Shown: positions 7,451 through 57,726, counted from the first letter of the stretch. The stretch is DNA of 64,000 nucleotides from Vicinamibacterales bacterium (GCA_036381155.1 DASVDJ010000196.1:52823-116822), one strand, 5' to 3'. A program made the numbers and translations. Notes: generated by a model not told the origin, from the sequence alone.

Positions 7451-7456
7451 ACTATA
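7451..7456 (-). promoter_or_regulatory. -10 box TATAGT only 4 nt upstream of the ECF sigma ATG (leaderless-type arrangement)
   Basis: Minus strand reads GGCTGGTATAGTCGACATG. It is an AT-rich island in GC-rich surroundings. Confidence 0.4.
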
Positions 7457-30791: not shown

Positions 30792-31515
30792 GAATCGCCT
30801 CGTCGGAGGACACCCGCTCGATCGGCCGCAGCGCGTACTGGGTCGCCTGCGCACGGATGCGGCCGTTCCTGATGTGGAAGAAGTCGACGCCCTCGGCCTC
30901 GACGCCCGCCGTGGACGTCGCCCGCCAGTCGAGCATCGCGTAGCCGTTGCCGATGGCGACGCGATCGAAGGTGTACCGCGCGTCCGGCACCTGCTGCGCA
31001 AGCCGCAACGCCGCGCGACGCACCCCGTCCCACCCTCGCAGCAGCTCGCCGTTGTCGACGATGGTGACCGCGGGCGAGTAGTTGTGCCGGAGATCGGGCT
31101 CGACGCGATGCCCGGCGCGGTCCTGGAGATGACGTTCGAGCACGCGCAGCACGGCCGTGTCATCCGCCCGCCCCGCCCAGGCCGCGGCGAAGAGCGCGCC
31201 GGCAACCGCATCCATCAGGTAGACCGGCCGGATTCGCCCGCGCCGTACGTAGGTCACCTCTGCCGCGCCGAGCGCCAGCGCCGAAGCGGCACCCAGGAAG
31301 CGCGCGTGCGGGCGCCGGATGAGCTCGAGCCCGATCACGGCGATCACGGCGCCGAAGGTCCTGACCAGCCAGTCGTCGGCCTTCGGTCCCGTCACGGCGG
31401 TGAACGAGCGGTAATGCACGAGCGGCCAGAGGCCGGAGGCCAGGTAGTACCAGCCCTGCGCGCGACCCGGCCAGTGATCGGTGCGCGACGGAACGAGCGT
31501 CAGCGGTGCGTCCAT
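30784..31515 (-). CDS. Fusion of an N-terminal multi-TM domain with a C-terminal SnoaL/NTF2-like domain
   Basis: MDAPLTLVPSRTDHWPGRAQGWYYLASGLWPLV...VIAVIGLELI... (TM helices), then YSPAVTIVDNGELLRGWDGVRRA...GYAMLDWRATSTAG...VDFFHIRNGRI (NTF2-like). Confidence 0.65.
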   Translation of the reverse strand: MDAPLTLVPSRTDHWPGRAQGWYYLASGLWPLVHYRSFTAVTGPKADDWLVRTFGAVIAVIGLELIRRPHARFLGAASALALGAAEVTYVRRGRIRPVYLMDAVAGALFAAAWAGRADDTAVLRVLERHLQDRAGHRVEPDLRHNYSPAVTIVDNGELLRGWDGVRRAALRLAQQVPDARYTFDRVAIGNGYAMLDWRATSTAGVEAEGVDFFHIRNGRIRAQATQYALRPIERVSSDEAIHG

Positions 31516-31528
31516 CGCGTCGTGCGAT

Positions 31529-31544
31529 AGCAACCCGTGTGCCT
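31529..31544 (-). promoter_or_regulatory. Sigma-54-type -24/-12 promoter (P10)
   Basis: Minus strand AGGCACACGGGTTGCT, with GG and GC 10 nt apart. It lies 13 nt upstream of the ATG at 31515. Confidence 0.6.
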
Positions 31545-34676: not shown

Positions 34677-35126
34677 ATGCGACGACTCTGCGGATCACGG
34701 CCGGGACGCGTCGTCCCGGCCGCAGCGCTGGTCCTGGCAGCCGCCCTGTCGGCGGCTGCCGGCGCTCCCGACCCCATCACCGTCCGGCTCCTCCCGGCCA
34801 CGGTGATGGAACACAACGACGTGAAGGCCATGGTGACCGTCGAGGAACGGGCGGAGAACCGGCGCCTGGTCGTTTCGCTGGACGGGCCCGAGTTCTACTC
34901 CAGCACGCAGCGGACGCTCGACGGGAAGAAGGGACCCCGGAGCCACGAGTTCTTCTTCCGCGCCCTGCCCGCCGGCGTGTACGAGCTTCGCGTCACGGTC
35001 GAGGACGACCGGGGGCACACGGCGTCGGTTGCGCGGAACTTCCAGGTCCACGGCATGAGCCAGGAGGAAGAGGTCGTACCCACCGGCCGTCGACGGCGTC
35101 CTCCCGGGCAGCGCTTCCGGCCCTAG
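34677..35126 (+). CDS. Small secreted Ig-like protein, 1 nt after the receptor stop
   Basis: Signal MRRLCGSRPGRVVPAAALVLAAALSAAAG, then beta-rich VRLLPATVMEHNDVKAMVTV...GVYELRVTVEDDRGHTASV. Confidence 0.6.
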   Translation: MRRLCGSRPGRVVPAAALVLAAALSAAAGAPDPITVRLLPATVMEHNDVKAMVTVEERAENRRLVVSLDGPEFYSSTQRTLDGKKGPRSHEFFFRALPAGVYELRVTVEDDRGHTASVARNFQVHGMSQEEEVVPTGRRRRPPGQRFRP

Positions 35127-38100
35127 AAGCCTGGACGGACTCCGAAACTGAACAGCCAGCCGCGGTCGCGGTCGAGCGGCCGTACGGCCGCGAACTCCAG
35201 AACGGCGAAGCCCAGCGCGTTGACGCGCACCCCCGCGCCGGTACTGCGGATCCAGTCGTCACCGAAGGATGGGTTGCGGTCGCCGCTCCAGGCGAAGCCG
35301 GCGTCGAAGAACACCAGCCCCTCCACCGGAACCGGCCCGTACTCGAGCTCGCCGGTGAAGATCCCGACCAGCGGGAAGCGCACCTCGGCGTTGAGGACGG
35401 CGATGCCGTCGCCGAAGAGCCGGTCGACCTCCTGACAGGTGCTGTCCGCCGTCACCGTGCACTCGGAGACGCGGAAGGAATCCCATTCGTACCCGCGCAC
35501 GAGCGTCGGGTAGCCGAGGAACAGCGGCGTCAGGCGGGGGTCGTCGATGTCGCCGCCGAAACGTCCCAGCACGAGGCCGCGCCCGGCAAGCGTCAGCGGA
35601 CGCACGGGCATGTAGTACTGCCGGAAGTCGGCGAGGAGGCTGGTAAAGGTCAGCCCTCCGGCGGTCTGCGTCGCTTCGAGCCGGTAGCGCCGGCCGAGCA
35701 GCGGACTCGTCGGGCCGAAGATGCCGGTGTCGAAGACGAGCGCGGCGCTGGCCTCGGCCATGTTCACCGTGTCGAGCCCGGGAATGTCCTCGCGCGCCTC
35801 GCCGAGGAACTGGCCCGTCGCAAGGTCGAACGCCTGCGAGATCTGCTCGGCGCTGACGCCGATCGACCGCAGGCCACCGGTGAACTCGAACCGCTGCGCG
35901 CGACTGAACGGGTACTCCAGGACCCCTGACACCTGCCGGTAGTACTGCCGGAACTGCGTGATTTCGTCGACGACCGCGGGACGCCCGTCGATCATTTCGA
36001 GGCGCTGGGTCACGAAGCCGCTGCGGTACGAGAGCTGCTCGGCGGTGCCGCCCCACCCGAGGCGCCTCCGGCGATTCAGGTAGGCCAGCTGGCCCGAGAA
36101 GTCGCGGACGTCTCCCTGGATCTGCGCCGTCGCGCCCAGGAGGTGATCGCCGAGCAGATCGCTCCAGAGGAAGGACACGCCGCCGCCGAAATAGGTGCCG
36201 AACGCGTCGGTGCCGACCCCGACCGACGGCTGGCCGACGAACTCGAGCCCGAGGTTCGCCTGGTACGGCCGAACGGGGAACTCCTGCGGCGGCGGCAGGC
36301 CGGCCGTCGCGTTCGCCAGCACCCGCGCCACGTCGCCGTCGTCACGGCGGACCGGCGGCAGCGTCGCCGCGTCTGCACGGGTGTGCGCCGGCAGCTCCAC
36401 CGCCGCCGCATCGTCGAGGAGCATGACCTGGTAGGCGTTGCGCCAGAGCACCGAGAAGGCCACGCGCCCGCTCTTCGACGCGACGGACAGGGCCGGGCTG
36501 TTGTTCGTGATGCCGGTCGCGCCGGTCGCCAGCCGAGAGACCGGCACCACCTGCCCCGAATCGAGGCTCAACCGGAAGACGTCGCTGACGCCCTGCGGCG
36601 CGGCGATGAAGTAGAGCGTCCGGCCGTCGGGGCCCCACTGCGGGTTCATCTGCTTCGCGTCACGGAACGCCTCGGGCAGGGGCACGGGCCGGATCTCGCG
36701 CGTCCGGACATCCATGATGGCGAGCTTCAGCGGCCCGAACGTCAACGTCTTCAGGTCCGAGGAGAACCGCTCCGTCGCAAAGGCGATGTGCCGGCCGTCC
36801 GGCGACCAGGCCGGCTGCTGATCCGACAGCAGATCCCGTGTGACCCGCGTCAGCGTCTCGCTCTCGAACTCGTACAGGTACAGGTCGGTGACGCCACCCT
36901 GGATGGCGGAAAATGCCACGACCTTGCCATCGGGCGACAGCGCGGGGTGGAAGATCTCACCGAGCTCCCGGAGCCGGACATCCTCGACGGTGTCGCCGCT
37001 CTCGACGTCGACGACGGTGATGTGAGGCTGCCCGCGCTGGATGGACGAGAACGCGAACCGCCGGCCTTCGCCGTCCCACGAACCGGACGCGTTCACGAAC
37101 TGGAGGCTGTCGAGGTGCGGGTTGGTCGCGGAGCGCGACAGGCGGCGGATGATGCGGCCCGTGTCGGCCTCGGCCAGGTACAGGTCGATCGACAGGCGCG
37201 AGCGCGACGACAGGAACATCAGGCGGCGTCCATCAGGGCTCAGCGACGGGGCCACCGTGATCTCATCCTCGCTCTGGTCGGGATTGAGCGGCCGTCCCGC
37301 CTCGAGCGGCGGCCGGCGCGCCTGGATGATCCCGCCGTACGCCTCCCGGATGGCCGCATGCCACTGGTTGGAGAGCTCCTCTTCTTCGATCCCGGTCAAC
37401 CGCTCGAGGACGTCAATCGGATCGCCGGACACGGCCAGCCGGTACGCGTCTCCGACGATCCGGTCGCCCCACCGCCCGGCCAGATAGGACCAGAGCGCGT
37501 GGCCGTAGCGATACGGGAAGAACTCGGGGCGGGACAGCTGCGAGATGCGCGGCAGGTTCTCGTTCAGCATCGCGTCGCGCAGCCACATGGCGGTGTGCGG
37601 GTCGAACGGCCCGATTGAGAGGTACTCCGCCATTCCCTCGACGAACCACAGCGGCAGGTGCAGCCCGCGCGTCCGCGTGTTGGCCGCGATGTCGAACTGG
37701 AAGGCGTGCACGAGCTCGTGGCCGATCACGTGATCGGTGTCGGCCCCGCTGGCCCCGAACGGCAGGACGATGCGGCGCCGCAGCGCCTCGGTGAGCCCGC
37801 CGGTGCCCTCGCCGATCATCCCCTGGACGACGTTCGTCTGCTGGAAATGGGGGTGGCTGGCGTAGAGGATCAGCGGCTGGCGGCTCGACAGCTCGTGATC
37901 CAGCACGGCCGACAGCCGCATGTACCAGCGCTCGGCCATGCGGGCGGCATCGCGCGCCGCATCTACTTCCTTCTCGTAGTGGTAGATGTCGAAACGTTCG
38001 GTCTCCAGCACCTTGAAGTCGAACGTCTCGTAGCGGACCTTGTTGGGACCGAAGTACTGCGCGGAGGCGCCCGCGGACAATCCGAACCAGAGTGCGACCA

Positions 38101-38143
38101 GCAGGCCCGCGCGGGCCCACCAAGCGGTTCCGCCCGACCTCAT
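35123..38143 (-). CDS. Outer-membrane fusion protein: HExxH metallopeptidase-like domain + TolB/PD40-type beta-propeller + Omp85-like C-terminal barrel
   Basis: Signal peptide. HVIGHELVHAFQF (HExxH). PD40-like SPDGRRLMFLS, SPDGKVVAFSA, SPDGRHIAFAT, GPDGRTLYFIA. C-terminus ...GWLFSFGVRPGF ends in Phe. SD GGAGGGAG. Confidence 0.8.
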   Translation of the reverse strand: MRSGGTAWWARAGLLVALWFGLSAGASAQYFGPNKVRYETFDFKVLETERFDIYHYEKEVDAARDAARMAERWYMRLSAVLDHELSSRQPLILYASHPHFQQTNVVQGMIGEGTGGLTEALRRRIVLPFGASGADTDHVIGHELVHAFQFDIAANTRTRGLHLPLWFVEGMAEYLSIGPFDPHTAMWLRDAMLNENLPRISQLSRPEFFPYRYGHALWSYLAGRWGDRIVGDAYRLAVSGDPIDVLERLTGIEEEELSNQWHAAIREAYGGIIQARRPPLEAGRPLNPDQSEDEITVAPSLSPDGRRLMFLSSRSRLSIDLYLAEADTGRIIRRLSRSATNPHLDSLQFVNASGSWDGEGRRFAFSSIQRGQPHITVVDVESGDTVEDVRLRELGEIFHPALSPDGKVVAFSAIQGGVTDLYLYEFESETLTRVTRDLLSDQQPAWSPDGRHIAFATERFSSDLKTLTFGPLKLAIMDVRTREIRPVPLPEAFRDAKQMNPQWGPDGRTLYFIAAPQGVSDVFRLSLDSGQVVPVSRLATGATGITNNSPALSVASKSGRVAFSVLWRNAYQVMLLDDAAAVELPAHTRADAATLPPVRRDDGDVARVLANATAGLPPPQEFPVRPYQANLGLEFVGQPSVGVGTDAFGTYFGGGVSFLWSDLLGDHLLGATAQIQGDVRDFSGQLAYLNRRRRLGWGGTAEQLSYRSGFVTQRLEMIDGRPAVVDEITQFRQYYRQVSGVLEYPFSRAQRFEFTGGLRSIGVSAEQISQAFDLATGQFLGEAREDIPGLDTVNMAEASAALVFDTGIFGPTSPLLGRRYRLEATQTAGGLTFTSLLADFRQYYMPVRPLTLAGRGLVLGRFGGDIDDPRLTPLFLGYPTLVRGYEWDSFRVSECTVTADSTCQEVDRLFGDGIAVLNAEVRFPLVGIFTGELEYGPVPVEGLVFFDAGFAWSGDRNPSFGDDWIRSTGAGVRVNALGFAVLEFAAVRPLDRDRGWLFSFGVRPGF

Positions 38144-38177
38144 CAGAGCTCCCTCCGCGCAGTACCGGACGCAGCCG

Positions 38178-38438
38178 TCAGACGGTACGGCGGCGCCCGA
38201 CTACCATCCGGTAGATGCCGAGCAGCACCACGGCCCCGAGCAGCGACATCAGGAAGCCCGCAGCGTCATCCGGCCCGTAGAGCCCCAGCGCGCGGCCGAT
38301 GTAGCCCCCCACGACCGCCCCGACAATGCCCAGCAGGATCGTCACGATGATACCGCCGGGATCCCTGCCGGGCATCACGAGCTTCGCGATGGCGCCGACG
38401 ATGAGCCCGAAGATGATCCAGCCGATGATGCCGAACAT
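38178..38438 (-). CDS. GlsB/YeaQ/YmgE (transglycosylase-associated) family stress membrane protein
   Basis: MFGIIGWIIFGLIVGAIAKLVMPGRDPGGIIVTILLGIVGAVVGGYIG: family-typical sequence. Confidence 0.85.
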   Translation of the reverse strand: MFGIIGWIIFGLIVGAIAKLVMPGRDPGGIIVTILLGIVGAVVGGYIGRALGLYGPDDAAGFLMSLLGAVVLLGIYRMVVGRRRTV

Positions 38439-38490
38439 AGGCCCCTCCTGCTTGCCGGTCCCCCACGGACCGGACGTCCGTCAGACGCTG

Positions 38491-38506
38491 AGCAACCGCC
38501 GTGCCG
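38491..38506 (-). promoter_or_regulatory. Sigma-54-type -24/-12 promoter (P1)
   Basis: Minus strand CGGCACGGCGGTTGCT (near-consensus GGCACG-N4-TTGCT). It lies 52 nt upstream of the ATG at 38438. Confidence 0.7.
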
Positions 38507-38566
38507 CCGCACGGTGCCGTCCTGTCGACCCGGGGACGCCGCCGTTGTCGGCTTCCGCGACAGACG

Positions 38567-39085
38567 TCACGGGGCGGACAGTTGCAGCGTCAGCCAGAGC
38601 ACACCAGGCAGCGTCTCGAAATGCCCCGATCGGATCCAGGAGGTGAACACCCGGGCGTCGCCCTCGGGCGCAAGCTCGGCCAGCCAGACGAGAACCTGCC
38701 GGCCGGACAGGATGACTCCGCGCGGGAGCGGGAGCCCGAGCGTGCCAGCGAGCTGCGCCGCGGATCCTGCCAGCCCGGACGCGACCTCCGCGACGACGGT
38801 CGGCCCGGGGTCAAACGCGAGCTCCGGATGGAGGAAGAGGGGAACGGTGAAGGGGGGCAGCCAGCGCGGCTGTGCGATCGCGACGCGCACGTCGATGCGG
38901 TTCGACGCGCCGACGGCGATCCCGATCGATCGCACGTATCGCTCGTGCCGCGCCGCAACCGCCGCGGCGATCTGATTGAGCACGGCGTCCGAGAACGGCA
39001 CCCGAAGCTCGAGCTGGGCGCCAGGGAAGTCCCGGAAGGTGCTGGCCCGCCACAGCTCGAGCAATCGGGTGATCTCGGGCGTCAC
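38567..39085 (-). CDS. Hypothetical protein (172 aa)
   Basis: Ordinary amino-acid composition, overlaps the upstream gene by 4 nt (operon). No motif recognised. Confidence 0.6.
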   Translation of the reverse strand: MTPEITRLLELWRASTFRDFPGAQLELRVPFSDAVLNQIAAAVAARHERYVRSIGIAVGASNRIDVRVAIAQPRWLPPFTVPLFLHPELAFDPGPTVVAEVASGLAGSAAQLAGTLGLPLPRGVILSGRQVLVWLAELAPEGDARVFTSWIRSGHFETLPGVLWLTLQLSAP

Positions 39086-39801
39086 GCCGGTGGCGGCGGC
39101 TCCGCCCTGGACTCGCCGGTGCCGGTCACCTCGCGTGCCCGCTCGATCACGGTGTCGCGCGCCTCGCGCGCGCGTTCGACGATCCGTTCACGAGCCTCAC
39201 CAAGCAGCTCCTTCTCGGCCTCCGTGCCCGGCACGGAGAGCCCCACGGCCGCGCCGGCCGCCAGCGCGGCGACGCCGAACGGCAGCGGGTGCTCGCGCAT
39301 CATCCGGCCGATCTGACCGGAGCGTCTGGACAGCGCGTGGCCCGTGGAGCGGATGCGCCGCCTCGCCGCACCCGCCATCTCGTGGGCCGTCCCGCTCCAC
39401 GCGACGTTGCCGAAACCCGCCCAGCCGGCGTGTTCCCCTTCCGCGCCGTGGGCCTCGGCGCCTTGCGCCGGCTCATCCCAGTGCGGCTGACCGGCATGGC
39501 GGACGTTGCGCACGAGCCATCCCAGCCCGAACGCGATCAGCGCCGCAGGCAACGGGTTGCGGCGAGCCTCGCGCATGAGCGACGAGCGGCCGGTGCTCCC
39601 GTATTCGCCGTAGTCGACTTCCTCCTCCGGCCAGGATCCGGCGGATTCATGGCGTGAACGCCCGCCCGCGTTCGACGTGGCCATCCGGTAGACGAGGTAG
39701 CCGAGCGCGACGCCGATCAGTGCCGCGGCGACGGGGTGTCCGCGTGCCGCGTCCCGCGTGTGGCGGGCCAGCTCGCTGGCCCTTCCGGTTGCATCCGTCA
39801 T
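39082..39801 (-). CDS. Hydrophilic stress-type protein carrying three ElaB/YqjD-like membrane-anchor segments
   Basis: GHPVAAALIGVALGYLV, RNPLPAALIAFGLGWLV and EHPLPFGVAALAAGAAVGL are separated by charged regions. SD GGGAGAG. Confidence 0.65.
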   Translation of the reverse strand: MTDATGRASELARHTRDAARGHPVAAALIGVALGYLVYRMATSNAGGRSRHESAGSWPEEEVDYGEYGSTGRSSLMREARRNPLPAALIAFGLGWLVRNVRHAGQPHWDEPAQGAEAHGAEGEHAGWAGFGNVAWSGTAHEMAGAARRRIRSTGHALSRRSGQIGRMMREHPLPFGVAALAAGAAVGLSVPGTEAEKELLGEARERIVERAREARDTVIERAREVTGTGESRAEPPPPA

Positions 39802-39861
39802 GACACTCTCCCTGCGCGGCCGTCCTGAATCCCGGGTTGCGACAGCGCGTCACGCGCCGTC

Positions 39862-40377
39862 TCAGGTGAGCGGCCCGCCGCCGTGCAGCTCGCTCGTCGG
39901 CCTCAGAGGCTGGCCGCTGCCCAGGCCCGGTTGCTGAACGCGCGATCCGCCGTGGAACCCCGGGCCGGACGCGGTGTGCCGATCGCCGTGCGACGAGCTC
40001 TTGAGCAGGCGTCCGCCCAGCAGCCCGAGCCCGAACGCCGCGCCGATGAACAGCGCAGGCTGCCGGCGCGCGAACTGCTGCACCTGCTCGATCATCTGCT
40101 GCAGGTCCTGCTCGTCGATGCGGTGCGAGAACTGCTCGATGCGATCGGACGCCCGCTGGACGTAGTTCGCCAGACCCGAACGACCGTCCTCACGCAGCAC
40201 GTCCGTCGCGCGCCGCAGTGCCTGCGCCACCTGCCCGAGGCTTTCGGTCGCGCGATGCTTCTGCTCGGACGCCTTCGCGGCGGCCATGCCCCTGACCGCG
40301 TCGCCGAACGACCGTCGCGTGCCGCCGACGTGCTGGTCTCCACCCTCAGCGTGACCGCCGGTGTGTTGCGTCTCCAT
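39862..40377 (-). CDS. Hydrophilic stress-type protein with a single C-terminal-proximal membrane anchor
   Basis: METQHTGGHAEGGDQH...IEQFSHRIDEQDLQQMIEQVQQFARRQPALFIGAAFGLGLLGGRLLK. This is the internal ATG of track ORF 39862..41829. Confidence 0.65.
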   Translation of the reverse strand: METQHTGGHAEGGDQHVGGTRRSFGDAVRGMAAAKASEQKHRATESLGQVAQALRRATDVLREDGRSGLANYVQRASDRIEQFSHRIDEQDLQQMIEQVQQFARRQPALFIGAAFGLGLLGGRLLKSSSHGDRHTASGPGFHGGSRVQQPGLGSGQPLRPTSELHGGGPLT

Positions 40378-40404
40378 GCGCTTCTCCGTACCGGAGCGGG
40401 AGGT

Positions 40405-40420
40405 AGCGAACGGCATGCCA
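40405..40420 (-). promoter_or_regulatory. Sigma-54-type -24/-12 promoter (P2)
   Basis: Minus strand TGGCATGCCGTTCGCT (-12 is TCGC rather than TTGC). It lies 27 nt upstream of the ATG at 40377. Confidence 0.5.
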
Positions 40421-40508
40421 TGCGGGATTCGGCGGGACGCGCCGCCGCCGCACGCGGACAGAGCCGTCGCTGTCGGCCAGTCAGACACGGCGTGTAATGC
40501 GTCGCGCG

Positions 40509-41321
40509 TCACGACGCCGGCGGGACCTCGACGTGGGCCGCGTCCTGCTCCGCTCCCCCCTTGGCGGGCGTGCCGACTGCTGGAGGACGCACGTGCTGCT
40601 CGACCAGTTCGAGTGCCTGACGGTAGCCGAGCGGCGTGCCGACGTCGACGTAGGCGCGTCCGGTCCGCACACCGGTTGCGGAGCCTCCTGCCTCGATGAA
40701 CGCGTGGATCAGTGTTCCGAGGTACTCGTCGCGGCAGGACCGTTCGTGCCAGAGCCGGCGCAGCGCAAGCAGGACGTGCCCCGGCATGCCCATCGCGCCC
40801 CAGATCCACCGCGAGCGCACGAGCGGCTGCTTCACGTCGATGCGGCGCACCGCTCCGCTTCCGTCCGTCTCGACGGCATCGAACAGCTCGGGGCGCTCCG
40901 ACGGGAACAGCAGGAGTCCGAGCCGGTCGCCCGGCAGCGTGCGCAGCGCGGGAATCGGGAACCAGACCGTGTCGGGCAGCCCGACCAGCACGCGGTCGTC
41001 GTCCCGGATGAGCGGCGCCGCCCGGAACACCGCATCGCAGAGCCCCGACGGGCGCGGTTGGACCACATAACAGACGGGACGCCCGAGCGCCGACCCGCCG
41101 TAGTACTCGAGGATGTCCGACTTTCCCGGTGCGATCACGAAGCAGAGGCGGTCGGCTCCGCCGGCGGCGAGGCGCTCGACCAGGAACTCGCTCACCGCGC
41201 GCGGGCGCTCGACGCCGCTCCCGTCGCGCCGGAACCCGACCGGCAGCAGCTCCTTCGAGAAGGCGAGCGGTTGAATGCGCGTGCCCGCCCCGGCCGCCGG
41301 CACGATGCCCCATACCGCCAT
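40509..41321 (-). CDS. Sugar-phosphate nucleotidyltransferase (RmlA/GalU-like fold)
   Basis: MAVWGIVPAAGAGTRIQPLAFSKELLPV (GxGTR loop); VDVGTPLGY near the C-terminus. Confidence 0.75.
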   Translation of the reverse strand: MAVWGIVPAAGAGTRIQPLAFSKELLPVGFRRDGSGVERPRAVSEFLVERLAAGGADRLCFVIAPGKSDILEYYGGSALGRPVCYVVQPRPSGLCDAVFRAAPLIRDDDRVLVGLPDTVWFPIPALRTLPGDRLGLLLFPSERPELFDAVETDGSGAVRRIDVKQPLVRSRWIWGAMGMPGHVLLALRRLWHERSCRDEYLGTLIHAFIEAGGSATGVRTGRAYVDVGTPLGYRQALELVEQHVRPPAVGTPAKGGAEQDAAHVEVPPAS

Positions 41322-41389
41322 CACGACCTCCAGGCGCCCACGACAGACGTGTCCGCGCGCACGCGCGCGGTGTCGGACGGTGCCGCACG

Positions 41390-41405
41390 TGCAAGGGAGC
41401 TGCCG
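41390..41405 (-). promoter_or_regulatory. Sigma-54-type -24/-12 promoter (P8)
   Basis: Minus strand CGGCAGCTCCCTTGCA. It lies 68 nt upstream of the ATG at 41321; SD GGAGG. Confidence 0.6.
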
Positions 41406-41406
41406 C

Positions 41407-41422
41407 AGGAACCGGCCTTGCA
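41407..41422 (+). promoter_or_regulatory. Sigma-54-type -24/-12 promoter (P7), back-to-back with P8
   Basis: AGGAACCGGCCTTGCA. It lies 11 nt upstream of the GTG at 41434. Confidence 0.55.
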
Positions 41423-41433: not shown

Positions 41434-42069
41434 GTGCTCGAGCCTCTGCTGGTGCTCGTCCGCCACGGCGACGTCGAACGCGGCGGCGACGTGCTCTGGG
41501 GCCGCAGCCCCGGCGTCGCGCTCACCGCGCACGGGCGACGTGCGATCGAGGCGCTGACGCCGGCGCTGCGAGGCCTGCGCGTGTCGCGTCTCGTGACGAG
41601 CCCGTGTCAGCGGGCCGTCGAGTCCGCCGCGCTGGTCTCGGATGCGCTTGGACTCCCGGTTGCCGCCGACGCGGGCTTTGACGAGTTCGACTACGGGGAC
41701 TGGAGCGGGCGTCCGTTCACGGCGCTGGCCCGCGATTCCCGCTGGCGGGCCTTCAACGAGGGTCGGGAGGACCGGACCGCGGCGCCCGGTGGCGAATCGG
41801 TCCTCGACTTCCAAACGCGCATTCGGCACTCACTCGATCGCCAGCTCCAGCACGCGACGGGCCGGACATGCATCGTCACGCACGCGGAGGTGGTGCGCGT
41901 CATCGTGCTCGACGCGCTCGGGCGGCCCCCCGCGGCGTGGGCCGAGGTGACGATACCGACCGCCTCGCTCACGCTGCTGCGCGGACCTTCGCGTGCGCGT
42001 CGGATCGTGGCCGTCGGGATTGGCGCGCGCGACGTCGCCGCACTCGCCGATACGCTGACCCTTCGGTAG
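41434..42069 (+). CDS. Histidine phosphatase (phosphoglycerate mutase-like) family protein
   Basis: LLVLVRHGDVE (RHG catalytic motif), SPCQRAVESA, THAEVVR. The start is uncertain (GTG 41434 or GTG 41452). Confidence 0.75.
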   Translation: MLEPLLVLVRHGDVERGGDVLWGRSPGVALTAHGRRAIEALTPALRGLRVSRLVTSPCQRAVESAALVSDALGLPVAADAGFDEFDYGDWSGRPFTALARDSRWRAFNEGREDRTAAPGGESVLDFQTRIRHSLDRQLQHATGRTCIVTHAEVVRVIVLDALGRPPAAWAEVTIPTASLTLLRGPSRARRIVAVGIGARDVAALADTLTLR

Positions 42070-42371: not shown

Positions 42372-42656
42372 TCAGTAGCTGCCCTGCCGGCTGAACTGAT
42401 CCGACCCGAGCTGCTTCACCAGCTTGTTGTAGATGCCGAGCATCAGGAACACGGGCGCCCACTGGCCGACGAACAGGCTGCCGTGCTTCTGTCCCATCGC
42501 CTGCATCGTCGCGGACGCGGTGATGGCTCCCAGTGCCGCCCAGAGGAACGTGTCCGAGGGAAGCTTCGCCGTCTGCTCCTCGATGCGACGCGCAACGGGC
42601 CCTTCCGTGTGCTGCGACTCGCCGGTCCGGGACATGCCCGCGTGCAGGTTCTCCAT
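42372..42656 (-). CDS. 94-aa small membrane protein
   Basis: Hydrophilic N-terminus, then FLWAALGAITASATMQAM and WAPVFLMLGIY hydrophobic segments. SD AGGAGGAGG. Confidence 0.65.
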   Translation of the reverse strand: MENLHAGMSRTGESQHTEGPVARRIEEQTAKLPSDTFLWAALGAITASATMQAMGQKHGSLFVGQWAPVFLMLGIYNKLVKQLGSDQFSRQGSY

Positions 42657-42697: not shown

Positions 42698-42713
42698 TGC
42701 AAGCACAGGACCA
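42698..42713 (-). promoter_or_regulatory. Sigma-54-type -24/-12 promoter (P3)
   Basis: Minus strand TGGTCCTGTGCTTGCA. It lies 41 nt upstream of the ATG at 42656. Confidence 0.6.
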
Positions 42714-43614: not shown

Positions 43615-44388
43615 TCAAGCACGGCCCTGCTCCGTGACGATGCGTGGCACGTCCGGCCCGGGCCCGGACGGCCGGCAGAGATACACCTCGGGCACGGGGT
43701 TGTCGACGATCTCGAACCCGGCGCTGCGCAGCATCGCCTCGGCGCAGGCACGGTTCGGCACCCACCAGTTCGTCCAGTCCTGCGCGAACTGCCGCTCGAT
43801 GAACTGCAGCCGCGGGAAGCCCGGCGTGGAGAACGGGGTGCTGTCGTGGAAATCGTAGTCCGGCTGGACCGGCGCGATCACGGCATCGCCACGAATCAGC
43901 GACTGGAACACCAGCAGGCGCCCGACGGCGTGACGCCGCAGCAGGTCCAGCGCGAGCAGCGGATGGCGGAGATGGTAGAGCACGCCCATGAAGAGCACGA
44001 GGTCGAAGGGGCCGCCGAGCTCCGCGACCTCGTAGACGGACCGCTCCTGGAACTCGACGTCCTCGTACCCGAGCCGTGCAGCCGCGAAGCGGGCCTGCCG
44101 CACGTACCGCGGGTCGGCGTCGATGCCGAGGACGTGCGCGGCGCCGCGGCGCTTCATCTCGAACGCGTAGAAGCCGGCGTTGCAGCCGACATCCAGCACA
44201 CGCCAGCCGCGCAGATCTTCGGGGAGACGGTGGGCGAAGTGCCGGAAGAATGTCGAGGGGAAATCGCCCAGATAGTGGCCGGGAGCGGTCTCCACACCGT
44301 CGAGCCGGAGATTGTGGAACCACGGGCCCAGCGCGTCGATGTGCGATCGGACCTCGTCTGGCTGCATGGATGGTGTCGCGTGCGCCAT
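43615..44388 (-). CDS. Class I SAM-dependent methyltransferase (CmoB-like architecture)
   Basis: GPWFHNLRLDG...WRVLDVGCNAGFYAFEM (motif I)...LVLFMGVLYHLRHPLLAL...NWWVPN. Confidence 0.8.
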   Translation of the reverse strand: MAHATPSMQPDEVRSHIDALGPWFHNLRLDGVETAPGHYLGDFPSTFFRHFAHRLPEDLRGWRVLDVGCNAGFYAFEMKRRGAAHVLGIDADPRYVRQARFAAARLGYEDVEFQERSVYEVAELGGPFDLVLFMGVLYHLRHPLLALDLLRRHAVGRLLVFQSLIRGDAVIAPVQPDYDFHDSTPFSTPGFPRLQFIERQFAQDWTNWWVPNRACAEAMLRSAGFEIVDNPVPEVYLCRPSGPGPDVPRIVTEQGRA

Positions 44389-44417: not shown

Positions 44418-44433
44418 TGCAATCGACGTTCCG
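44418..44433 (-). promoter_or_regulatory. Sigma-54-type -24/-12 promoter (P9)
   Basis: Minus strand CGGAACGTCGATTGCA. It lies 29 nt upstream of the ATG at 44388; SD GGAGG is in between. Confidence 0.6.
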
Positions 44434-44677
44434 CCCCGTCCGCACACGCGCGTGCGCAAGCCCGTGCGTGTGCGCGCCCGTTGTTCGCATCCCTGACAGG
44501 GCTGTTCATCTCCGATGCGACTGCCCCGCCGCGTGTGGCAGCACGTCGCGGAGTCTTCAACGGCCCGCGCGCGTTCCGCGTGCGCCGCGCGCGAGCCGGC
44601 CCGCTGCGTCATCCCGCACCCGCGACGTCCGAATCGTTGACGAATCAACAAAGATGGCGGTCGCTGCATACGTTGCG

Positions 44678-44693
44678 TGGAACATACGTTGCA
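44678..44693 (+). promoter_or_regulatory. Sigma-54-type -24/-12 promoter (P4) in front of the nine-gene glycan operon
   Basis: TGGAACATACGTTGCA. It lies 50 nt upstream of the ATG at 44744; SD GGGAGG. Confidence 0.65.
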
Positions 44694-46952: not shown

Positions 46953-48062
46953 ATGGGCACACCGACTCCGGCTCACGTCCTGATGACCGCGGATGCCGTC
47001 GGCGGCGTGTGGACCTATGCCACCACGCTTGCCGAAGGTCTTGGCGCCCGCGGCGTCCGGATTACGCTCGCCGTCCTCGGCCCGCCGCCGCGGCCGGAGC
47101 AGCTCGACGCCGTGCGAAGGCTGCCGTTCGTCGACGTGTGCCACGCCCGGTTCGCGCTGGAGTGGATGCCCGGTGCCGAGCGGGACGTCGAGCGCTCCGC
47201 TGAGTGGGTACTGCGGCTGGTCCAGGAGCGCCGGCCCGACGTCGTCCAGATCAACGGCTACGCGCTCGCGACCTATCCGTTGGGCTGTCCGACGTTCCTG
47301 GTTGCGCACTCGTGCGTGTGCTCGTGGTGGCGTGCCGTGCACGGGTGCCAGGCGCCACACGCGTGGCGCACGTATCGACAGCGCGTGGACATCGGCCTGC
47401 AGCGTGCCAGCCGGGTCGTGGCGCCGACCGCGGCGATGCTCCGCGCGCTCCGTCGGGAGTTCCGGTGGAAGGGGGACGGGCTCGTGATCCACAACGGCCT
47501 GCCACCACCCGGCGCGCCGCCGGCGTCACCCCGCGTCGGGGTGCTGGCCGCCGGCCGCGTGTGGGATGCCGCCAAGAACATCGCCGTGCTCGACACGGTG
47601 GCGCCTGACGTCGACGGCCCGGTGGCCATCGCCGGCGACGCCAGCAGTCCCGACGGCAGCCAGCGGTTGCCGCGTCACGCCGAGTGCCTGGGATCGCTGC
47701 CGAGAGACGCGGTGCTGGCCCGGATGACCGAGACTGCCGTCTACGCCCTGCCGGCCCGGTACGAGCCGTTCGGGCTCTCCGTGCTCGAGGCCGCACAGCG
47801 CGGCTGTGCGCTCGTGCTCGGCGACATCTCGACGCTGCGCGAGCTCTGGGAGGGAGCCGCGGTGTTCGTGCAGCCCGACGACCGGGTGGGGCTCACCCGC
47901 GTGCTGAACCGGCTCGTGCACGATCCCGCGGCGCGCCAGCGGCTGGCCGAGGCCGCCCGGCTGCGCGCGACGCGCTACACGCTCGCCGCGATGGTCGACG
48001 GGTACCTGCGTTTGTATCGTGCGCTCGCGCGCACCGGGGAGGCGGTTCCGTGCGCGTCGTAG
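46953..48062 (+). CDS. GT-B glycosyltransferase, GT4-like
   Basis: ADAVGGVWTY N-terminus; EPFGLSVLEAAQRGCALVLGDISTLRE (E-x7-E region). Confidence 0.8.
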   Translation: MGTPTPAHVLMTADAVGGVWTYATTLAEGLGARGVRITLAVLGPPPRPEQLDAVRRLPFVDVCHARFALEWMPGAERDVERSAEWVLRLVQERRPDVVQINGYALATYPLGCPTFLVAHSCVCSWWRAVHGCQAPHAWRTYRQRVDIGLQRASRVVAPTAAMLRALRREFRWKGDGLVIHNGLPPPGAPPASPRVGVLAAGRVWDAAKNIAVLDTVAPDVDGPVAIAGDASSPDGSQRLPRHAECLGSLPRDAVLARMTETAVYALPARYEPFGLSVLEAAQRGCALVLGDISTLRELWEGAAVFVQPDDRVGLTRVLNRLVHDPAARQRLAEAARLRATRYTLAAMVDGYLRLYRALARTGEAVPCAS

Positions 48063-49177
48063 TCCTGTGCCACTCGCTGCGGTCGGACTGGAACCACGGC
48101 AACGCGCACTTCCTGCGCGGCATCTGCCGCGACCTGCTGCGGCGCGGGCACGAGGTCGTCGTCCTCGAGCCCGCGAATGGCTGGAGCGCGCTGAACCTGA
48201 CACGGGAAGCCGGCATGGCCGGGCTCGACGCCTATCGCGCGGCGTACCCGGAACTGGAGTCGTCCGTCTACGACCCGTCGCGCTTCGATGCCGACGCCGC
48301 GCTCGACGGCGCCGATCTCGTCATCGTTCACGAGTGGACCGATCCCGCCATCGTGCACGCCGTCGGCCGGTACCGGCGCAGGGCCTGCTGCGTCCTGCTG
48401 TTCCACGACACGCATCATCGCAGCGTCTCCAGCCCGGACGAGATCGACCGGCTCGACCTGTCGGACTACGACGGCGTGCTCGCCTTTGGCGCGGCCGTCG
48501 CCGACCAGTACGTCGCCCGCCGCCTGGCGGCGAACGTCTGGGTCTGGCACGAGGCCGCCGACGTCTCGGTGTTCGCGCCGCGCGAGGGCGTGGCGCGCGA
48601 GGCCGACGTCGTCTGGATCGGCAACTGGGGCGACGACGAGCGGACGGCGGAGCTGCACGAGTTCCTGCTCGAGCCTGTACGAGCGCTCGGGCTCGGCGGC
48701 TCCGTGCACGGCGTCCGCTACCCGGCCGGCGCACGCGAGTCGGTCGCACGCGCGGGGCTCGCCTACCACGGCTGGCTGCCCAATCACGCCGTGCCGGAGG
48801 TCTTCGCGCGGCATCGCGTGACGGTGCACATCCCGCGCCGCCCCTACGCCGACGCGCTGCCCGGGATCCCGACCATCCGGGTCTTCGAGGCGCTCGCCTG
48901 CGGCATCCCGCTCGTCTGCGCGCCCTGGACCGACAGTGAGGGCCTGTTCACGCCTGGTGCCGACTATCTGGTGGCGCGCGACGGCGCCGACATGCGGGCC
49001 CACCTGCGGTCGCTGACGTCGGACGCCGCGCTGGCCGATGCGATCGCACGGCACGGGCGCCACACGGTGCTGACGAGGCACACCTGCCGCCATCGGGTCG
49101 ACGAACTGCTGGCCATCGTCTCGTCGCTGGCCGGCGCGGCGGCTGCGACGCCGCACCGCGAGGTCGAGGTGTTCTGA
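48050..49177 (+). CDS. CgeB-like glycosyltransferase paralog 1 (Glyco_trans_1_2-type C-terminus)
   Basis: GTG start after GGGGAGG. VRVVVLCHSLRSDWNHGNAHFLRGI; RVFEALACGIPLVCAPWTDSEGLFTPGADYLVA. Confidence 0.75.
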   Translation: MRVVVLCHSLRSDWNHGNAHFLRGICRDLLRRGHEVVVLEPANGWSALNLTREAGMAGLDAYRAAYPELESSVYDPSRFDADAALDGADLVIVHEWTDPAIVHAVGRYRRRACCVLLFHDTHHRSVSSPDEIDRLDLSDYDGVLAFGAAVADQYVARRLAANVWVWHEAADVSVFAPREGVAREADVVWIGNWGDDERTAELHEFLLEPVRALGLGGSVHGVRYPAGARESVARAGLAYHGWLPNHAVPEVFARHRVTVHIPRRPYADALPGIPTIRVFEALACGIPLVCAPWTDSEGLFTPGADYLVARDGADMRAHLRSLTSDAALADAIARHGRHTVLTRHTCRHRVDELLAIVSSLAGAAAATPHREVEVF

Positions 49178-50352
49178 TGCGGCCGACGCTGGCCTTCTTC
49201 GGATCGAGTCTGGTGTCCGCGTACTGGAACGGCGCCGCCACGTACTACCGCGGCATCCTCCGCGCGCTGGACACGCGCGGATGGCGCGCGACCTTCTTCG
49301 AGCCGGACGCCTTTGGACGGCAGGCCCATCGCGACATCCCCGATCCGTCGTGGGCGCGCGTCCTGGTGTACCAGCCGACACCTGACGGACTGCAGCGCGC
49401 GCTCGATGAAGCCGCGAGTGCCGACGTCCTGGTCAAGGCGAGCGGCGTCGGCGTCTTCGATGCCGAGCTCGAGGCCGCTCTGCCGGCCATGCGCCGGCCC
49501 GGGCAGATCTGCCTCTTCTGGGACGTCGACGCGCCCGCGACGCTGGAGCGGCTGGACCGGACACCGGACGACCCGCTCCGCGCCCGGATTCCGTCGTTCG
49601 ATCTCGTGCTGACGTACGGCGGCGGCCCGCCGGTGGTGGCACTGTACCGCGCGCTCGGCGCTCGCGACTGCGTGCCCATCTACAACGCCCTGGATCCGGA
49701 CACCCACCATCCGGTCCCGCCGCACGACGCCTATCGCGCCGACCTGGCGTTCCTCGGCAACCGCCTGCCCGATCGCGAGGAGCGGGTGCGCGAGTTCTTC
49801 CTCTCGGCGGCGGCCGCGCGGCCGGCCCGCTCGTTCCTGCTTGGCGGCAACGGCTGGCACCCGGACGACGTGCCTCCGAACGTGACCGTGCTCGGGCACG
49901 TGCCGACGGCCGCGCACAACACGTTCAACTGCTCGCCGCTCGCCGTGCTGAACATCAACCGCTCCAGCATGGCGCGGATCGGCTTCTCGCCGGCCACACG
50001 CGTGTTCGAGGCGGCAGGGGCCGGCGCCTGTCTCGTCACCGATGCGTTCGAGGGTGTCGAGGCGTTCCTCTCGCCCGGCGAGGAGATTCTCGTCGCGGAC
50101 AGCGGCGCCGACGTGATCGGTCTCCTCGACGCGCTCACGCCGGAGCGCGCCCGGGCCATCGGGCGCGCCGCGCGCGCCCGCGTGCTGGCCGCGCACACGT
50201 ACGAACACCGGGTCGTCCAGCTCGAACGCGTGCTGGACGCCGCACTCACCGGATCGCCTCGATGCAGCCAACGCTCCGCTTCGTCTTTCTCGGCCTCTCC
50301 GTCACGTCCTCGTGGGGAAACGGCCACGCCACGACGTACCGCGGCCTCGTAA
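49177..50352 (+). CDS. CgeB-like glycosyltransferase paralog 2
   Basis: MRPTLAFFGSSLVSAYWNGAATYYRGIL; RVFEAAGAGACLVTDAFEGVEAFLSPGEEILVA. The 3' end overlaps the next gene by 91 nt. Confidence 0.75.
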   Translation: MRPTLAFFGSSLVSAYWNGAATYYRGILRALDTRGWRATFFEPDAFGRQAHRDIPDPSWARVLVYQPTPDGLQRALDEAASADVLVKASGVGVFDAELEAALPAMRRPGQICLFWDVDAPATLERLDRTPDDPLRARIPSFDLVLTYGGGPPVVALYRALGARDCVPIYNALDPDTHHPVPPHDAYRADLAFLGNRLPDREERVREFFLSAAAARPARSFLLGGNGWHPDDVPPNVTVLGHVPTAAHNTFNCSPLAVLNINRSSMARIGFSPATRVFEAAGAGACLVTDAFEGVEAFLSPGEEILVADSGADVIGLLDALTPERARAIGRAARARVLAAHTYEHRVVQLERVLDAALTGSPRCSQRSASSFSASPSRPRGETATPRRTAAS

Positions 50353-51461
50353 CCGCCCTGGCACGGCGCGGACACGACGTGCTCTTCCTCGAGCGCGACG
50401 CGCCGTGGTACGCGCGGCACCGTGATCTGACGGAGCTGGCCGGCGCCCGCGTCGAGCTGTACGGATCGGTCGTCGATCTCCGCCGCCGGTTCACCAGGGA
50501 GATCCAGCGCGCGCACATCGTCGTGGTCGGGTCGTACGTGCCGGAAGGGCGCCGGGTCGGGCGCTGGGTGCGGGCGGCGGCGCGCGGCATCGTTGCCTTC
50601 TACGACATCGACACGCCGGTGACGCTCGCGACGCTCGAGACGGATCGCTGTGAGTACCTGTCGCGGCGCCTGCTGCCTGCCTACGACCTGTACCTGTCCT
50701 TCAGCGGCGGCCCCGCGCTCCGCCGGCTCAACCGGCTCGGCGCACGCATGGTCCGTCCGCTGTACTGCGCGGTCGATCCAGCGCAGTACCTGCCGGCCGG
50801 CGGGCCTTCCGCGTGGGACCTGGGCTATCTCGGCACGTACGCCGCGGATCGGCAGCCCGCGCTCGAGTCGCTGCTGCTCCGGGTCGCGGACGGCTGGCCC
50901 GACGGGCGCTTCGTGGTCGGCGGTCCGCTGTATCCGCCCGACATCCACTGGCCCGCGAACGTGGAGCGCACCGAGCATGTCCCGCCGGCGGATCACAGCC
51001 GCTTCTACGGCCGCCAGCGGTTCACGCTGAACCTGACGCGCGCCGACATGCGCCGGCTCGGACACTCCCCGAGCGTCCGGCTGTTCGAAGCCGCGGCGTG
51101 CGGCGCCGCCATCCTGACCGATGACTGGAGCGGGCTCGACGAGTTCTTCACGCCCGGCATCGACCTGGTCCGCGTGCGATCCGCGCGCGACGTCGTCGAG
51201 GCACTGCGTGACATGCCCGAAGAGCGGCGCGTCGCGCTCGGGTGCTCGGCGCGGGCGCGCGTGCTGGCCGCCCACACGGCCGACGACCGCGCGCGAAGGC
51301 TCGAAGAGTACGCGTTCGAGCTGCTCGAGACCCGGGCGGTCGCGTCCCGGGCGGCCGACATGTCCCGCGGGCGGCCGCGCCGACGCTCGCAGCCGCCCGC
51401 GCGACCACGAGTCGCGGCCGTGCAGCGGCAGCTCGGAATTGACGAGGACCTCACGGCATGA
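50262..51461 (+). CDS. CgeB-like glycosyltransferase paralog 3
   Basis: MQPTLRFVFLGLSVTSSWGNGHATTYRGL; RLFEAAACGAAILTDDWSGLDEFFTPGIDLVRV. Confidence 0.75.
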   Translation: MQPTLRFVFLGLSVTSSWGNGHATTYRGLVTALARRGHDVLFLERDAPWYARHRDLTELAGARVELYGSVVDLRRRFTREIQRAHIVVVGSYVPEGRRVGRWVRAAARGIVAFYDIDTPVTLATLETDRCEYLSRRLLPAYDLYLSFSGGPALRRLNRLGARMVRPLYCAVDPAQYLPAGGPSAWDLGYLGTYAADRQPALESLLLRVADGWPDGRFVVGGPLYPPDIHWPANVERTEHVPPADHSRFYGRQRFTLNLTRADMRRLGHSPSVRLFEAAACGAAILTDDWSGLDEFFTPGIDLVRVRSARDVVEALRDMPEERRVALGCSARARVLAAHTADDRARRLEEYAFELLETRAVASRAADMSRGRPRRRSQPPARPRVAAVQRQLGIDEDLTA

Positions 51462-52411: not shown

Positions 52412-53484
52412 GTCCCATGGGGTCCGCCACCGCATCCCGCCCACGGCCGAGACTCGGGTTTCTCGGTCTCGGCTGGATCGGCCGTCACCGCCTCGAGTGC
52501 GTCGCCGCCGCCCGGACCGCGGAGATCGCGGCGCTCGCCGATGCCGACCGCCATGCGCTGTCCGATGCGCAGCGGCTCGTCCCGGGCGCCGTCTGCGCGC
52601 GCTCGCTCGAAGCGCTGCTCGGTCGGGCGGACCAGCTCGACGGCCTCGTCATCGCGACGCCCAGCGCCGGGCACGCCCCCGAGACTGCGGCCGCGCTCGA
52701 CGCCGGGCTCGCCGTCTTCTGCCAGAAGCCGCTCGGACGCACCGCGGCCGAAGCGAGTCGGGTCGTCGAGATCGCGCGGCAGCGTAATCGGCTGCTCGAC
52801 GTCGATCTCGGCTACCGGCACCTCGCGGCCACGCAGGCCGTGCGGAATTCGCTCGAGGCCGGTGAACTGGGCGACATCGTCGCCGTGGACCTCACCTTCC
52901 ACAACGCCTACGGCCCCGACAAGCCGTGGTACTACGACCGGACACTCTCGGGAGGCGGCTGTCTGATCGACCTCGGCGTCCATCTGATCGACCTGCTCCA
53001 TGTCCTCACCGGACGGCGTGCCTGGCGCGTCACCGCTGCGGCGCTCTTCGCGAGCGGCCGGCGCTGGACGCGCGATTCGGAGGCGGTCGAAGACCTCGCG
53101 ATCGCGCAGCTGGATCACGCCTCCGGCATGGCAGCACGCCTGGCCTGCTCGTGGCGTTTGCCAGCCGGATGCGACGCGGTGATCGAGTGGACGGTGCAGG
53201 GCACGACGTCCGCCGCGCGGGTGCGCAACGTCGGCGGGTCGTTCTACGACTTCACCGCCGAGCGGCTCGATCGCGGCCGGCTCCGGACGCTCGTGCAGCC
53301 GCCCGACGCGTGGGGCGGGCGGGCCCTGCTGGACTGGACCGCACGCCTTGCTGAAGGAAACCGCTTCGATCCGCGGGCAGACCGGCTTGTCGACCTCGCG
53401 GCCGCGATCGACGCGATCTACGACGCGGCCACACCGTCCGCCGGGGTCGGCCCGCCAGCCGGGTCACGCGTGGTCAGCGCCTGA
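52408..53484 (+). CDS. Gfo/Idh/MocA family oxidoreductase
   Basis: RLGFLGLGWIGRHR (N-terminal Rossmann), VFCQKPL (EKP-like motif), GGGCLIDLGVHLIDL. Confidence 0.8.
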   Translation: MSPMGSATASRPRPRLGFLGLGWIGRHRLECVAAARTAEIAALADADRHALSDAQRLVPGAVCARSLEALLGRADQLDGLVIATPSAGHAPETAAALDAGLAVFCQKPLGRTAAEASRVVEIARQRNRLLDVDLGYRHLAATQAVRNSLEAGELGDIVAVDLTFHNAYGPDKPWYYDRTLSGGGCLIDLGVHLIDLLHVLTGRRAWRVTAAALFASGRRWTRDSEAVEDLAIAQLDHASGMAARLACSWRLPAGCDAVIEWTVQGTTSAARVRNVGGSFYDFTAERLDRGRLRTLVQPPDAWGGRALLDWTARLAEGNRFDPRADRLVDLAAAIDAIYDAATPSAGVGPPAGSRVVSA

Positions 53485-57460: not shown

Positions 57461-57726
57461 GCAGTCTCCTCGCCGGCGCGGGCCTTCGCGTAGGCCTCGC
57501 GGCCCCGGTCGATGGCCTCGGCGAGCTGGTCCTTCTGCCGCTTCAGCGCTTCACGGCCGTCGCGGGCGGCCGCGCGCGCCCGCTCGCGGCTCTCGCGCGC
57601 CTTCTCCGACAGGAACTGGCGCGTCTCCTCGCCCGCCGCCGGCGCAAACAGCAGCGCCGCCGCGGCGCCGGCGATGGCGCCCGCCACGAACGCGAGCAGA
57701 ACGGACCCCGAATCGTGATTCGACAT
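57457..57726 (-). CDS. YtxH-like membrane-anchored stress protein
   Basis: MSNHDSGSVLLAFVAGAIAGAAAALLFAPAAGEETRQFL: the YtxH family signature (LFAP..G..TR). Confidence 0.75.
   Translation of the reverse strand: MSNHDSGSVLLAFVAGAIAGAAAALLFAPAAGEETRQFLSEKARESRERARAAARDGREALKRQKDQLAEAIDRGREAYAKARAGEETA

Follow-up and report, generated by a model that had tools for sequence, protein, structure and literature searches.

Two sigma-54-type -24/-12 elements stand back-to-back on opposite strands within 33 bp of intergenic DNA of an uncultured soil acidobacterium (a Vicinamibacterales MAG), each aimed at its own gene, and both are kept in at least five lineages. Taken as a whole, the best explanation that we can offer, and one that we regard as fairly probable, is that the segment holds two independent, back-to-back sigma-54-dependent promoters, one for a sugar-phosphate nucleotidyltransferase (NTase) gene and one for a histidine phosphatase gene. 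The window denotes here the whole 64-kb stretch of DNA that was analysed, by computation throughout, and positions refer to it unless a locus is named.

Two opposed elements between divergent genes

The window has a G+C content of 71%, and genes were called by third-position GC. The NTase gene (40509-41321, minus strand; identified by translation, PF00483) starts with ATG, carries GGAGG in front of the start codon and heads a minus-strand cluster of small stress and membrane proteins; small membrane/stress-type proteins, a Transgly_assoc protein and a PD40/Omp85 protein are encoded downstream of it. A protein from a Vicinamibacterales MAG (Acidobacteriota) matches its product with 100% identity. 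In the PD40/Omp85 protein (1006 aa; 35123-38143, minus strand), which is kept in the related loci L081 and L084, WD40-like PD40 beta-propeller repeats are joined to a C-terminal domain of the Omp85 type. On the other side of the gap, the histidine phosphatase gene (41434-42069, plus strand; His_Phos_1, Pfam E=1e-39) starts with GTG and is not preceded by a Shine-Dalgarno sequence. Its translation shows VLEPLLVLVRHG, with the His_Phos_1 domain beginning at residue 6 and the RHG motif at residues 10-12. The gene calls contain no plus-strand gene upstream of the phosphatase gene from 35123 to 41321, and a scan of the 112-bp gap detected no sigma-70-like promoter, terminator or Rfam element. Since there is neither an upstream plus-strand gene nor a sigma-70-like promoter nor an Rfam element, each of the two genes would need a promoter within the 112-bp gap.

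The phosphatase and GT-NTase genes are also divergent neighbours at locus L093, and this neighbourhood suggests a functional link between phosphatase and NTase and hence their co-regulation. Among relatives with listed neighbours, the NTase gene often adjoins a PF13524 glycosyltransferase gene, and at L093 it additionally lies near a histidine phosphatase gene. Members of the NTase family that are 58-68% identical occur across Acidobacteriota, Gemmatimonadota, Alphaproteobacteria, Verrucomicrobiota and others (loci L001-L080), and the family may represent a widespread module in a pathway for a sugar-derived compound.

Read directly from the window, positions 41390-41422 are TGCAAGGGAGCTGCCGCAGGAACCGGCCTTGCA, that is TGCAAGGGAGCTGCCG-c-AGGAACCGGCCTTGCA, exactly as a preliminary description of this DNA had written them. 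The segment consists of two GG-N8-TTGCA (-24/-12) motifs on opposite strands, each pointing towards its own gene. The element facing the NTase gene, here called P_NTase, occupies 41390-41405 on the minus strand (5'-CGGCAGCTCCCTTGCA-3'), with GG at 41404/41403 and GC at 41392/41391, and the element facing the phosphatase gene, P_phos, occupies 41407-41422 on the plus strand (5'-AGGAACCGGCCTTGCA-3'), with GG at 41408/41409 and GC at 41420/41421. Both have GG-N10-GC geometry, with exactly 10 bp between the GG and GC dinucleotides. In the window a single nucleotide lies between the two 16-mers, and a 3-nt spacer (41405-41407) between the -24 GG dinucleotides. Compared with TGGCAC-N5-TTGCW, each element has 2 mismatches at 11 specified positions: TTGCA is perfect and A stands two positions past GG in both, T at -26 is absent from both, and P_phos has A in place of the C after GG (AGGAAC), with the result that its GGAAC resembles ECF-type -35 elements too. 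With 2 mismatches allowed, TGGCAC-N5-TTGCW has 23 matches against 15.6 expected, which alone is not significant. The predicted transcription start sites (TSSs) lie at about 41379 (minus strand) and 41433 (plus strand), about 54 bp apart. Transcription from P_NTase would thus begin with a 58-nt leader (41322-41379, minus strand) that contains the Shine-Dalgarno sequence GGAGG (41327-41331), and would continue through the NTase gene and the small stress and membrane genes behind it. Two inward-facing GG-N9-TGCA matches, at 41379 (plus strand) and 41433 (minus strand), were discarded as candidates; they follow from TGCA being identical to its reverse complement, and their GG spacing is apparently not kept in relatives.

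The divergent arrangement of phosphatase and NTase genes and the genes downstream recur on contigs that carry close NTase homologues. For comparison we used the window and four further lineages, L081, L084, L089 and L090, the NTases of which are 88%, 75%, 76% and 78% identical, respectively, to that of the window; L082 and L083 are identical to L081 in the region of the pair, as are L091 and L092 to L090. Both motifs are found in all five lineages, as TGCAA-N8-CC followed by GG-N8-TTGCA. Across the five, P_NTase (GGCAGC-N4-TTGCA) aligns free of gaps with 11 of 15 columns invariant (73%), and P_phos (GG[AC]A[CT]C-N4-TTGCA), likewise gap-free, with 10 of 15 (67%), compared with 15-18% invariant columns and many gaps in the inter-motif spacer, the stretch to the phosphatase start and the NTase leader (14 of 77 alignment columns in the last). 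Insertions and deletions occur only between the motifs and never inside them, and the internal spacing of each motif is intact; the lengths of these indels are not multiples of three, which marks the intergenic gap as non-coding. In the order given, the GG-to-GG gap measures 3, 5, 6, 6 and 3 nt and the whole pair spans 33, 35, 36, 36 and 33 bp. The preliminary description had placed the -24 elements 1 nt apart, which is correct for the window genome but does not extend to the relatives, in which the GG dinucleotides stand 3-6 nt apart. Measured from centre to centre, the GG dinucleotides are 5-8 bp apart in the five lineages, and hence no helical phase is conserved between the -24 elements. 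The earlier assignment of the left half to the NTase gene and of the right half to the phosphatase gene is borne out by this comparison, in which both halves behave as independent conserved -24/-12 elements.

A palindrome had been pointed out as well, and the outer 7 nt of the pair (TGCAAGG/CCTTGCA) do form a perfect inverted repeat in the window. This repeat is what speaks for regarding the 33 bp as one palindromic operator (TGCAAGG...CCTTGCA) at which a dimeric transcription factor would control both genes, a reading that we consider very improbable: the distance from TGCAA to TTGCA shifts by up to 3 bp among relatives, the symmetry past TGCAA is lost in L084 and L089 (TGCAAGC versus TGCAAAG in the reverse complement), and many other genes are preceded by a lone half-motif, with its GG at N8, in a single orientation. 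The variable gap between the motifs argues for two separate promoters rather than for a single operator.

At 80 NTase loci from other phyla, the motif was found in none within 300 nt upstream of the gene; these loci were of no use for footprinting and were kept as negative controls only. A Blastocatellia locus, the only such case among these loci, has a canonical site that lies beyond 300 nt upstream. The putative sigma-54 control of the NTase gene is lineage-specific on this evidence, the distant homologues in other phyla being without the motif. EcfG-type promoters of the form GGAAC-N15-18-CGTT were not found upstream of those other-phyla homologues either. A metagenome scan with the phosphatase protein returned 2 loci only, and the intergenic region was covered by neither.

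Sigma-54-type sites elsewhere in the window

In the 64-kb window GG-N8-TTGCA has 9 matches against 3.1 expected, and at least 9 matches were obtained in none of 100 shuffles, whereas TTGCA alone is not over-represented (23 versus 36.7 expected). When GG-Nn-TTGC[AT] was scanned from N3 to N15, 13 sites were found in the window at N8 and 1-6 at the other spacings. Of the N8 sites, 11 of 13 fall in DNA scored as intergenic, which makes up 7.6% of the window; one of these 11, at 6780 (minus strand), really lies inside a zf-HC2 ORF. The N8 spike recurs in the syntenic relatives (19 sites versus 1-5 at other spacings) and is absent from the loci of other Acidobacteriota, Gemmatimonadota and Alphaproteobacteria that served as negative controls. 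In the window the ten intergenic GG-N8-TTGC[AT] sites are at 30251 (+), 31543 (-), 38505 (-), 41404 (-), 41408 (+), 42712 (-), 44432 (-), 44679 (+), 55908 (-) and 56029 (+), an unusually dense set for 64 kb and about 58 genes. This lineage may make heavy use of sigma-54. Wider divergent pairs, which the preliminary description had also named, exist at 44418 (-)/44679 (+) and 55894 (-)/56029 (+).

Seven of the window sites were aligned, and every one is directed at its downstream gene. Leaders of about 20-75 nt with clear ribosome-binding sites follow five of the seven, and the site at 30251 (+) as well. A two positions past GG, which lies outside the searched pattern, is present in 6 of the 7 aligned sites, as it is in TGGCAC. 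The aligned sites have no -10-like element at the distance of sigma-70-family promoters after GGAAC or TTGCA.

The window also encodes an enhancer-binding protein of 1141 aa (8972-12397, minus strand) with a Sigma54_activat domain (E=4e-62), a GAFTGA motif, a Walker A motif, an AAA lid and an HTH_8 domain. Enhancer-binding proteins of this kind are known to work only with sigma-54, and the presence of this gene therefore points to a sigma-54 system in the organism. We regard the predicted activator as a sign of such a system and, at most, as a possible regulator of the pair. Its first ~820 residues match no Pfam family at E<=0.001, and its gene adjoins that of a 619-aa TPR protein (7069-8928). 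Given the spacing-specific enrichment, the intergenic location and the activator gene in the window, the GG-N8-TTGCA motif is not a product of chance.

It might nevertheless be read by something other than sigma-54, namely a lineage-specific sigma factor or a monomeric DNA-binding regulator positioned at a fixed distance upstream of starts. We consider this improbable, with a small chance of being right. In its favour, rpoN is not in the 64-kb window and was not directly observed, GGAAC, which resembles ECF -35 elements, occurs in four window sites, 10-11 sites per 64 kb is a high number for a sigma-54 regulon, and no enhancer motif was found. However, two conserved blocks at a strict 10-bp separation are the signature of sigma-54, a sigma-70-family factor needs ~17 bp between its elements, and no conserved -10-like element is found 16-18 nt past GGAAC. 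In addition, gene starts 11-13 nt past TTGCA (see below) fit the position of a sigma-54 TSS, a GAFTGA activator is encoded in the window, and some sites read canonical GGCAC-N5-TTGCT.

Several of the sites around the pair are kept in the relatives. They comprise the putative sigma-54-type promoters of a 94-aa gene (42372-42656; GGTCCTGTGCTTGCA at 42698-42712, minus strand, kept in L081, L084, L089 and L090), of a TIGR04290 methyltransferase gene (43615-44388; GGAACGTCGATTGCA at 44418-44432, minus strand, kept in L081 and L084), of an epimerase/glycosyltransferase operon that begins at 44744 (GGAACATACGTTGCA at 44679-44693, plus strand, identical in L081 and L084) and of the Transgly_assoc gene (38178-38438; GGCACGGCGGTTGCT at 38491-38505, minus strand, kept in L081, L084 and L090), the last of which reads canonical cGGCACGGCGGTTGCT. 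The island genes served by such sites encode two epimerases, a GT4 glycosyltransferase, four PF13524 glycosyltransferases, oxidoreductases, an SDR and the TIGR04290 methyltransferase, and YtxH and DUF948 stress-type genes lie just past the island (57029-57726, minus strand). Its gene content gives the region the look of an island under sigma-54 control, devoted to a sugar-derived product and to stress proteins, and P_NTase and P_phos would be part of the dense local set of sigma-54-type promoters that drives this sugar-nucleotide, glycosyltransferase and stress-protein island. Sigma-54 has been proposed to be linked with the cell exterior (PMC3162934), and the putative sugar/stress island would fit that proposed link.

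The island has further features of its own. Its four PF13524 (Glyco_trans_1_2) genes are paralogous and lie at 48050-51461 (plus strand) and 53418-54542 (minus strand), together with two epimerase genes, a GT4 gene, a zinc alcohol dehydrogenase gene and a GFO/IDH/MocA oxidoreductase gene. DUF948, YtxH and Transgly_assoc proteins and uncharacterised small proteins are encoded nearby, at 57029-57726, 38178-38438 and 39862-40377, all on the minus strand; in other bacteria, DUF948, YtxH and Transgly_assoc proteins are characteristic members of general-stress regulons. Overlapping the epimerase promoter tGCATACGTTGCgtggaaCATACGTTGCa, at 44666-44693 (plus strand), is a direct repeat of the form CATACGTTGC-N6-CATACGTTGC, nearly identical in L081 and L084; a second -12-like box and a regulator site are both possibilities for it.

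The start of the phosphatase gene and its predicted message

The GTG at 41434 opens the His_Phos_1 ORF and is 11 nt past the plus-strand motif, as had been noted. In all five lineages the phosphatase start codon, GTG in four and ATG in one, lies 11-13 nt past TTGCA and is not preceded by a Shine-Dalgarno sequence, and the alternative GTG downstream (41452 in the window) is missing in L084 and L089. With the C of TTGCA taken as -12, the TSS would be at 41433 and the phosphatase leader would measure 0-3 nt. The phosphatase mRNA is thus, by the geometry of its promoter, probably leaderless: transcription from P_phos would start at about 41433, at or within 1-3 nt of the GTG, and the message would be translated without a leader. 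The preliminary description had proposed a near-leaderless transcript, and the recurrence of this distance in five lineages and at other genes strengthens that proposal.

This start-codon geometry is shared by seven further genes, of which one lies in the window and six belong to related loci. In the window this is a SnoaL-like gene (site at 31514-31543, minus strand), the ATG of which is 13 nt past TTGCT. In another Vicinamibacterales genome, a GT-NTase operon (L085:4746-4775) starts with a GTG 12 nt past TTGCA, and the GT-NTase operons of L094-L098 carry tGGCG[CT]-N5-[TA]ATGCA with the start codon 11-13 nt further on (L094:1856-1886, L095:1915-1944, L096:1861-1890, L097:1293-1322 and L098:1116-1144). 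Together with the five phosphatase genes, 12 gene starts that have no Shine-Dalgarno sequence are found 11-13 nt past TGCA or TGCT. All twelve fit, and support, a predicted TSS ~12 nt past the -12 element, and they suggest that leaderless sigma-54 transcripts recur in this group. The public gene calls for the phosphatase disagree with one another, the gene being truncated at L081:5413-5901, over-extended at L089:2226-3002 and called from the downstream GTG, 18 nt on, at L090:940-1548. The promoter geometry suggests one common start for all of them, and the motif set helps to correct start codons that gene callers have miscalled in these MAGs.

According to a published study (PMC3616915), leaderless mRNA that begins with GTG is inefficient in E. 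coli. Such a GTG-initiated leaderless mRNA would be required by four of the five phosphatase orthologues. In a literature search for sigma-54-dependent leaderless mRNAs we found no discussion of them, an absence that is no proof of novelty.

These observations bear on whether both motifs are productive. If one motif only were a working promoter, it would most likely be P_NTase, which is closer to GGCA; the phosphatase gene would be served by an unrecognised promoter, and the other motif would be a non-productive sigma-54 binding site or be kept for another reason. P_phos is farther from the consensus (AGGAAC) and would yield an unusual GTG-started leaderless mRNA, and gene callers chose other phosphatase starts in 3 of 4 relatives, all of which agrees with a single working promoter. 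We nonetheless think that arrangement rather unlikely, as conservation is equal in the two motifs (10 of 15 columns invariant in P_phos, 11 of 15 in P_NTase), the distance of 11-13 nt from TTGCA to the start is fixed in five lineages and at unrelated genes, and neither a sigma-70-like promoter nor an upstream plus-strand gene that could provide read-through was found.

Possible control of the pair and known sigma-54 systems

Enhancer-dependent transcription in bacteria has its model in the sigma-54 promoters. Sigma-54 forms closed complexes that are stable and require an ATPase activator; in the textbook layout the activator binds ~100 bp upstream and reaches the promoter by DNA looping. The enhancer is typically 80-150 bp upstream of the promoter. 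The preliminary description had placed any activator site of one promoter inside the other gene, which presupposes an activator bound to upstream DNA; an activator might instead bind downstream or be devoid of a DNA-binding domain. With 3-6 bp between the -24 GG elements, no enhancer fits between P_NTase and P_phos. The five-lineage alignment contains no conserved, enhancer-like non-coding block near the pair, and no k-mer was found to be shared upstream of the 10 window promoters (best 7-mer, p ~4e-4 before correction). A GC-rich palindrome in the NTase leader (41351-41378) was rejected as a hairpin or operator, being lineage-specific and not conserved in sequence; the folding z-scores of the leader range from -1.3 to +0.7 in the five orthologues and are no better than those of shuffled sequence. 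For two independent promoters, an activator would consequently have to bind inside the transcribed DNA of one gene or farther off, or act independently of a site.

Elsewhere in the window, the DNA that separates the methyltransferase promoter from the epimerase promoter contains a conserved block (44482-44520) with the inverted repeat TCGCATC-N22-GATGCGA and CCCTGACAGGG inside; being ~50-90 bp upstream of the -24 element of the methyltransferase gene, this block is a candidate enhancer. The inverted repeat at 44485-44520 was rejected as a common enhancer, as it occurs once only in the window.

The published model of the sigma-54 closed complex includes DNA from about -33 to -5/-9 and has the RpoN domain seated on the -24 element (PMC5505868). 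On the pair described here, two closed complexes would both need 41400-41412, 13 bp common to both. By analogy with the modelled complex, simultaneous occupancy by two holoenzymes is doubtful, and simultaneous remodelling by two activator hexamers seems unlikely. The two promoters would probably fire in alternation and not together. A mutually exclusive or shared-activator switch, as had been proposed, could result from such an arrangement; the apparent linkage of the two genes favours co-regulation over an either/or switch. As one package, heavy use of sigma-54 for a regulon of stress and cell-surface sugar genes (about one promoter per 6 kb), leaderless mRNAs, an enhancer-independent or downstream-binding activator and obligatory alternation of holoenzymes on 13 bp strikes us as unlikely.

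A conserved pair with nearly touching -24 elements breaks the textbook layout of sigma-54 promoters, in that its enhancer, if one is needed at all, would have to be located within transcribed or coding sequence or serve both promoters from one flank. Should it be confirmed, the pair, which is 33-36 bp long and varies naturally in its spacer (3, 5 and 6 nt), would be a compact system for studying holoenzyme co-occupancy, activator access and promoter interference in a sigma-54 system, and sigma-54-driven leaderless mRNAs would be documented in the poorly studied Acidobacteriota. A literature search for back-to-back or overlapping divergent sigma-54 promoters returned no described case, which again is no proof of novelty.

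Considering its geometry, core elements, orientation and conservation, the predicted pair fits the class of sigma-54 promoters. Like a canonical member of this class, each element has GG and GC 10 bp apart, TTGCA at -15 to -11 and A two positions past GG, and stands upstream of a gene in the right orientation. Unlike canonical TGGCAC-N5-TTGCW, the sites described here usually have C rather than T before GG, and P_phos has GGAAC for GGCAC; the pair also differs from a canonical promoter in its lack of a recognisable upstream enhancer and in one predicted leaderless transcript. Helicobacter FlgR and Chlamydia CtcC are enhancer-independent sigma-54 activators without a DNA-binding domain. Sigma-54 activation without enhancer binding is reportedly treated in a 2007 review by Beck, Smith and Hoover. 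Activation of the FlgR/CtcC type would explain promoters that have neither room nor a motif for an enhancer, but the one activator encoded in the window, unlike FlgR and CtcC, carries an HTH_8 DNA-binding domain.

Divergent sigma-54 pairs with a shared intervening enhancer are known from zraP/zraSR and hyc/hyp of E. coli, and in pairs of this type the -24 elements are ~100 bp or more apart, with the activator sites between them. As in those systems, two sigma-54-type promoters point outward from one intergenic region and are presumably under common control, and the pairs at 44418/44679 and 55894/56029 in the window have the wider, zraP/zraSR-like layout. In contrast to zraP/zraSR and hyc/hyp, only 3-6 bp separate the -24 elements of P_NTase and P_phos, and the DNA of the closed complexes would overlap. 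At bidirectional sigma-70 promoters, divergent transcription arises from compact, pseudo-symmetrical DNA, and competition between polymerases is of consequence only under strong activation of one direction (Warman et al., NAR 2026, PMC12825309). By analogy, competition at the pair described here may likewise matter only under strong one-sided activation. Whereas bidirectional sigma-70 promoters share or overlap one symmetrical element, the pair consists of two complete, non-overlapping -24/-12 sets, and, should obligatory alternation prove true, it would be the sigma-54 counterpart of the bidirectional sigma-70 promoter.
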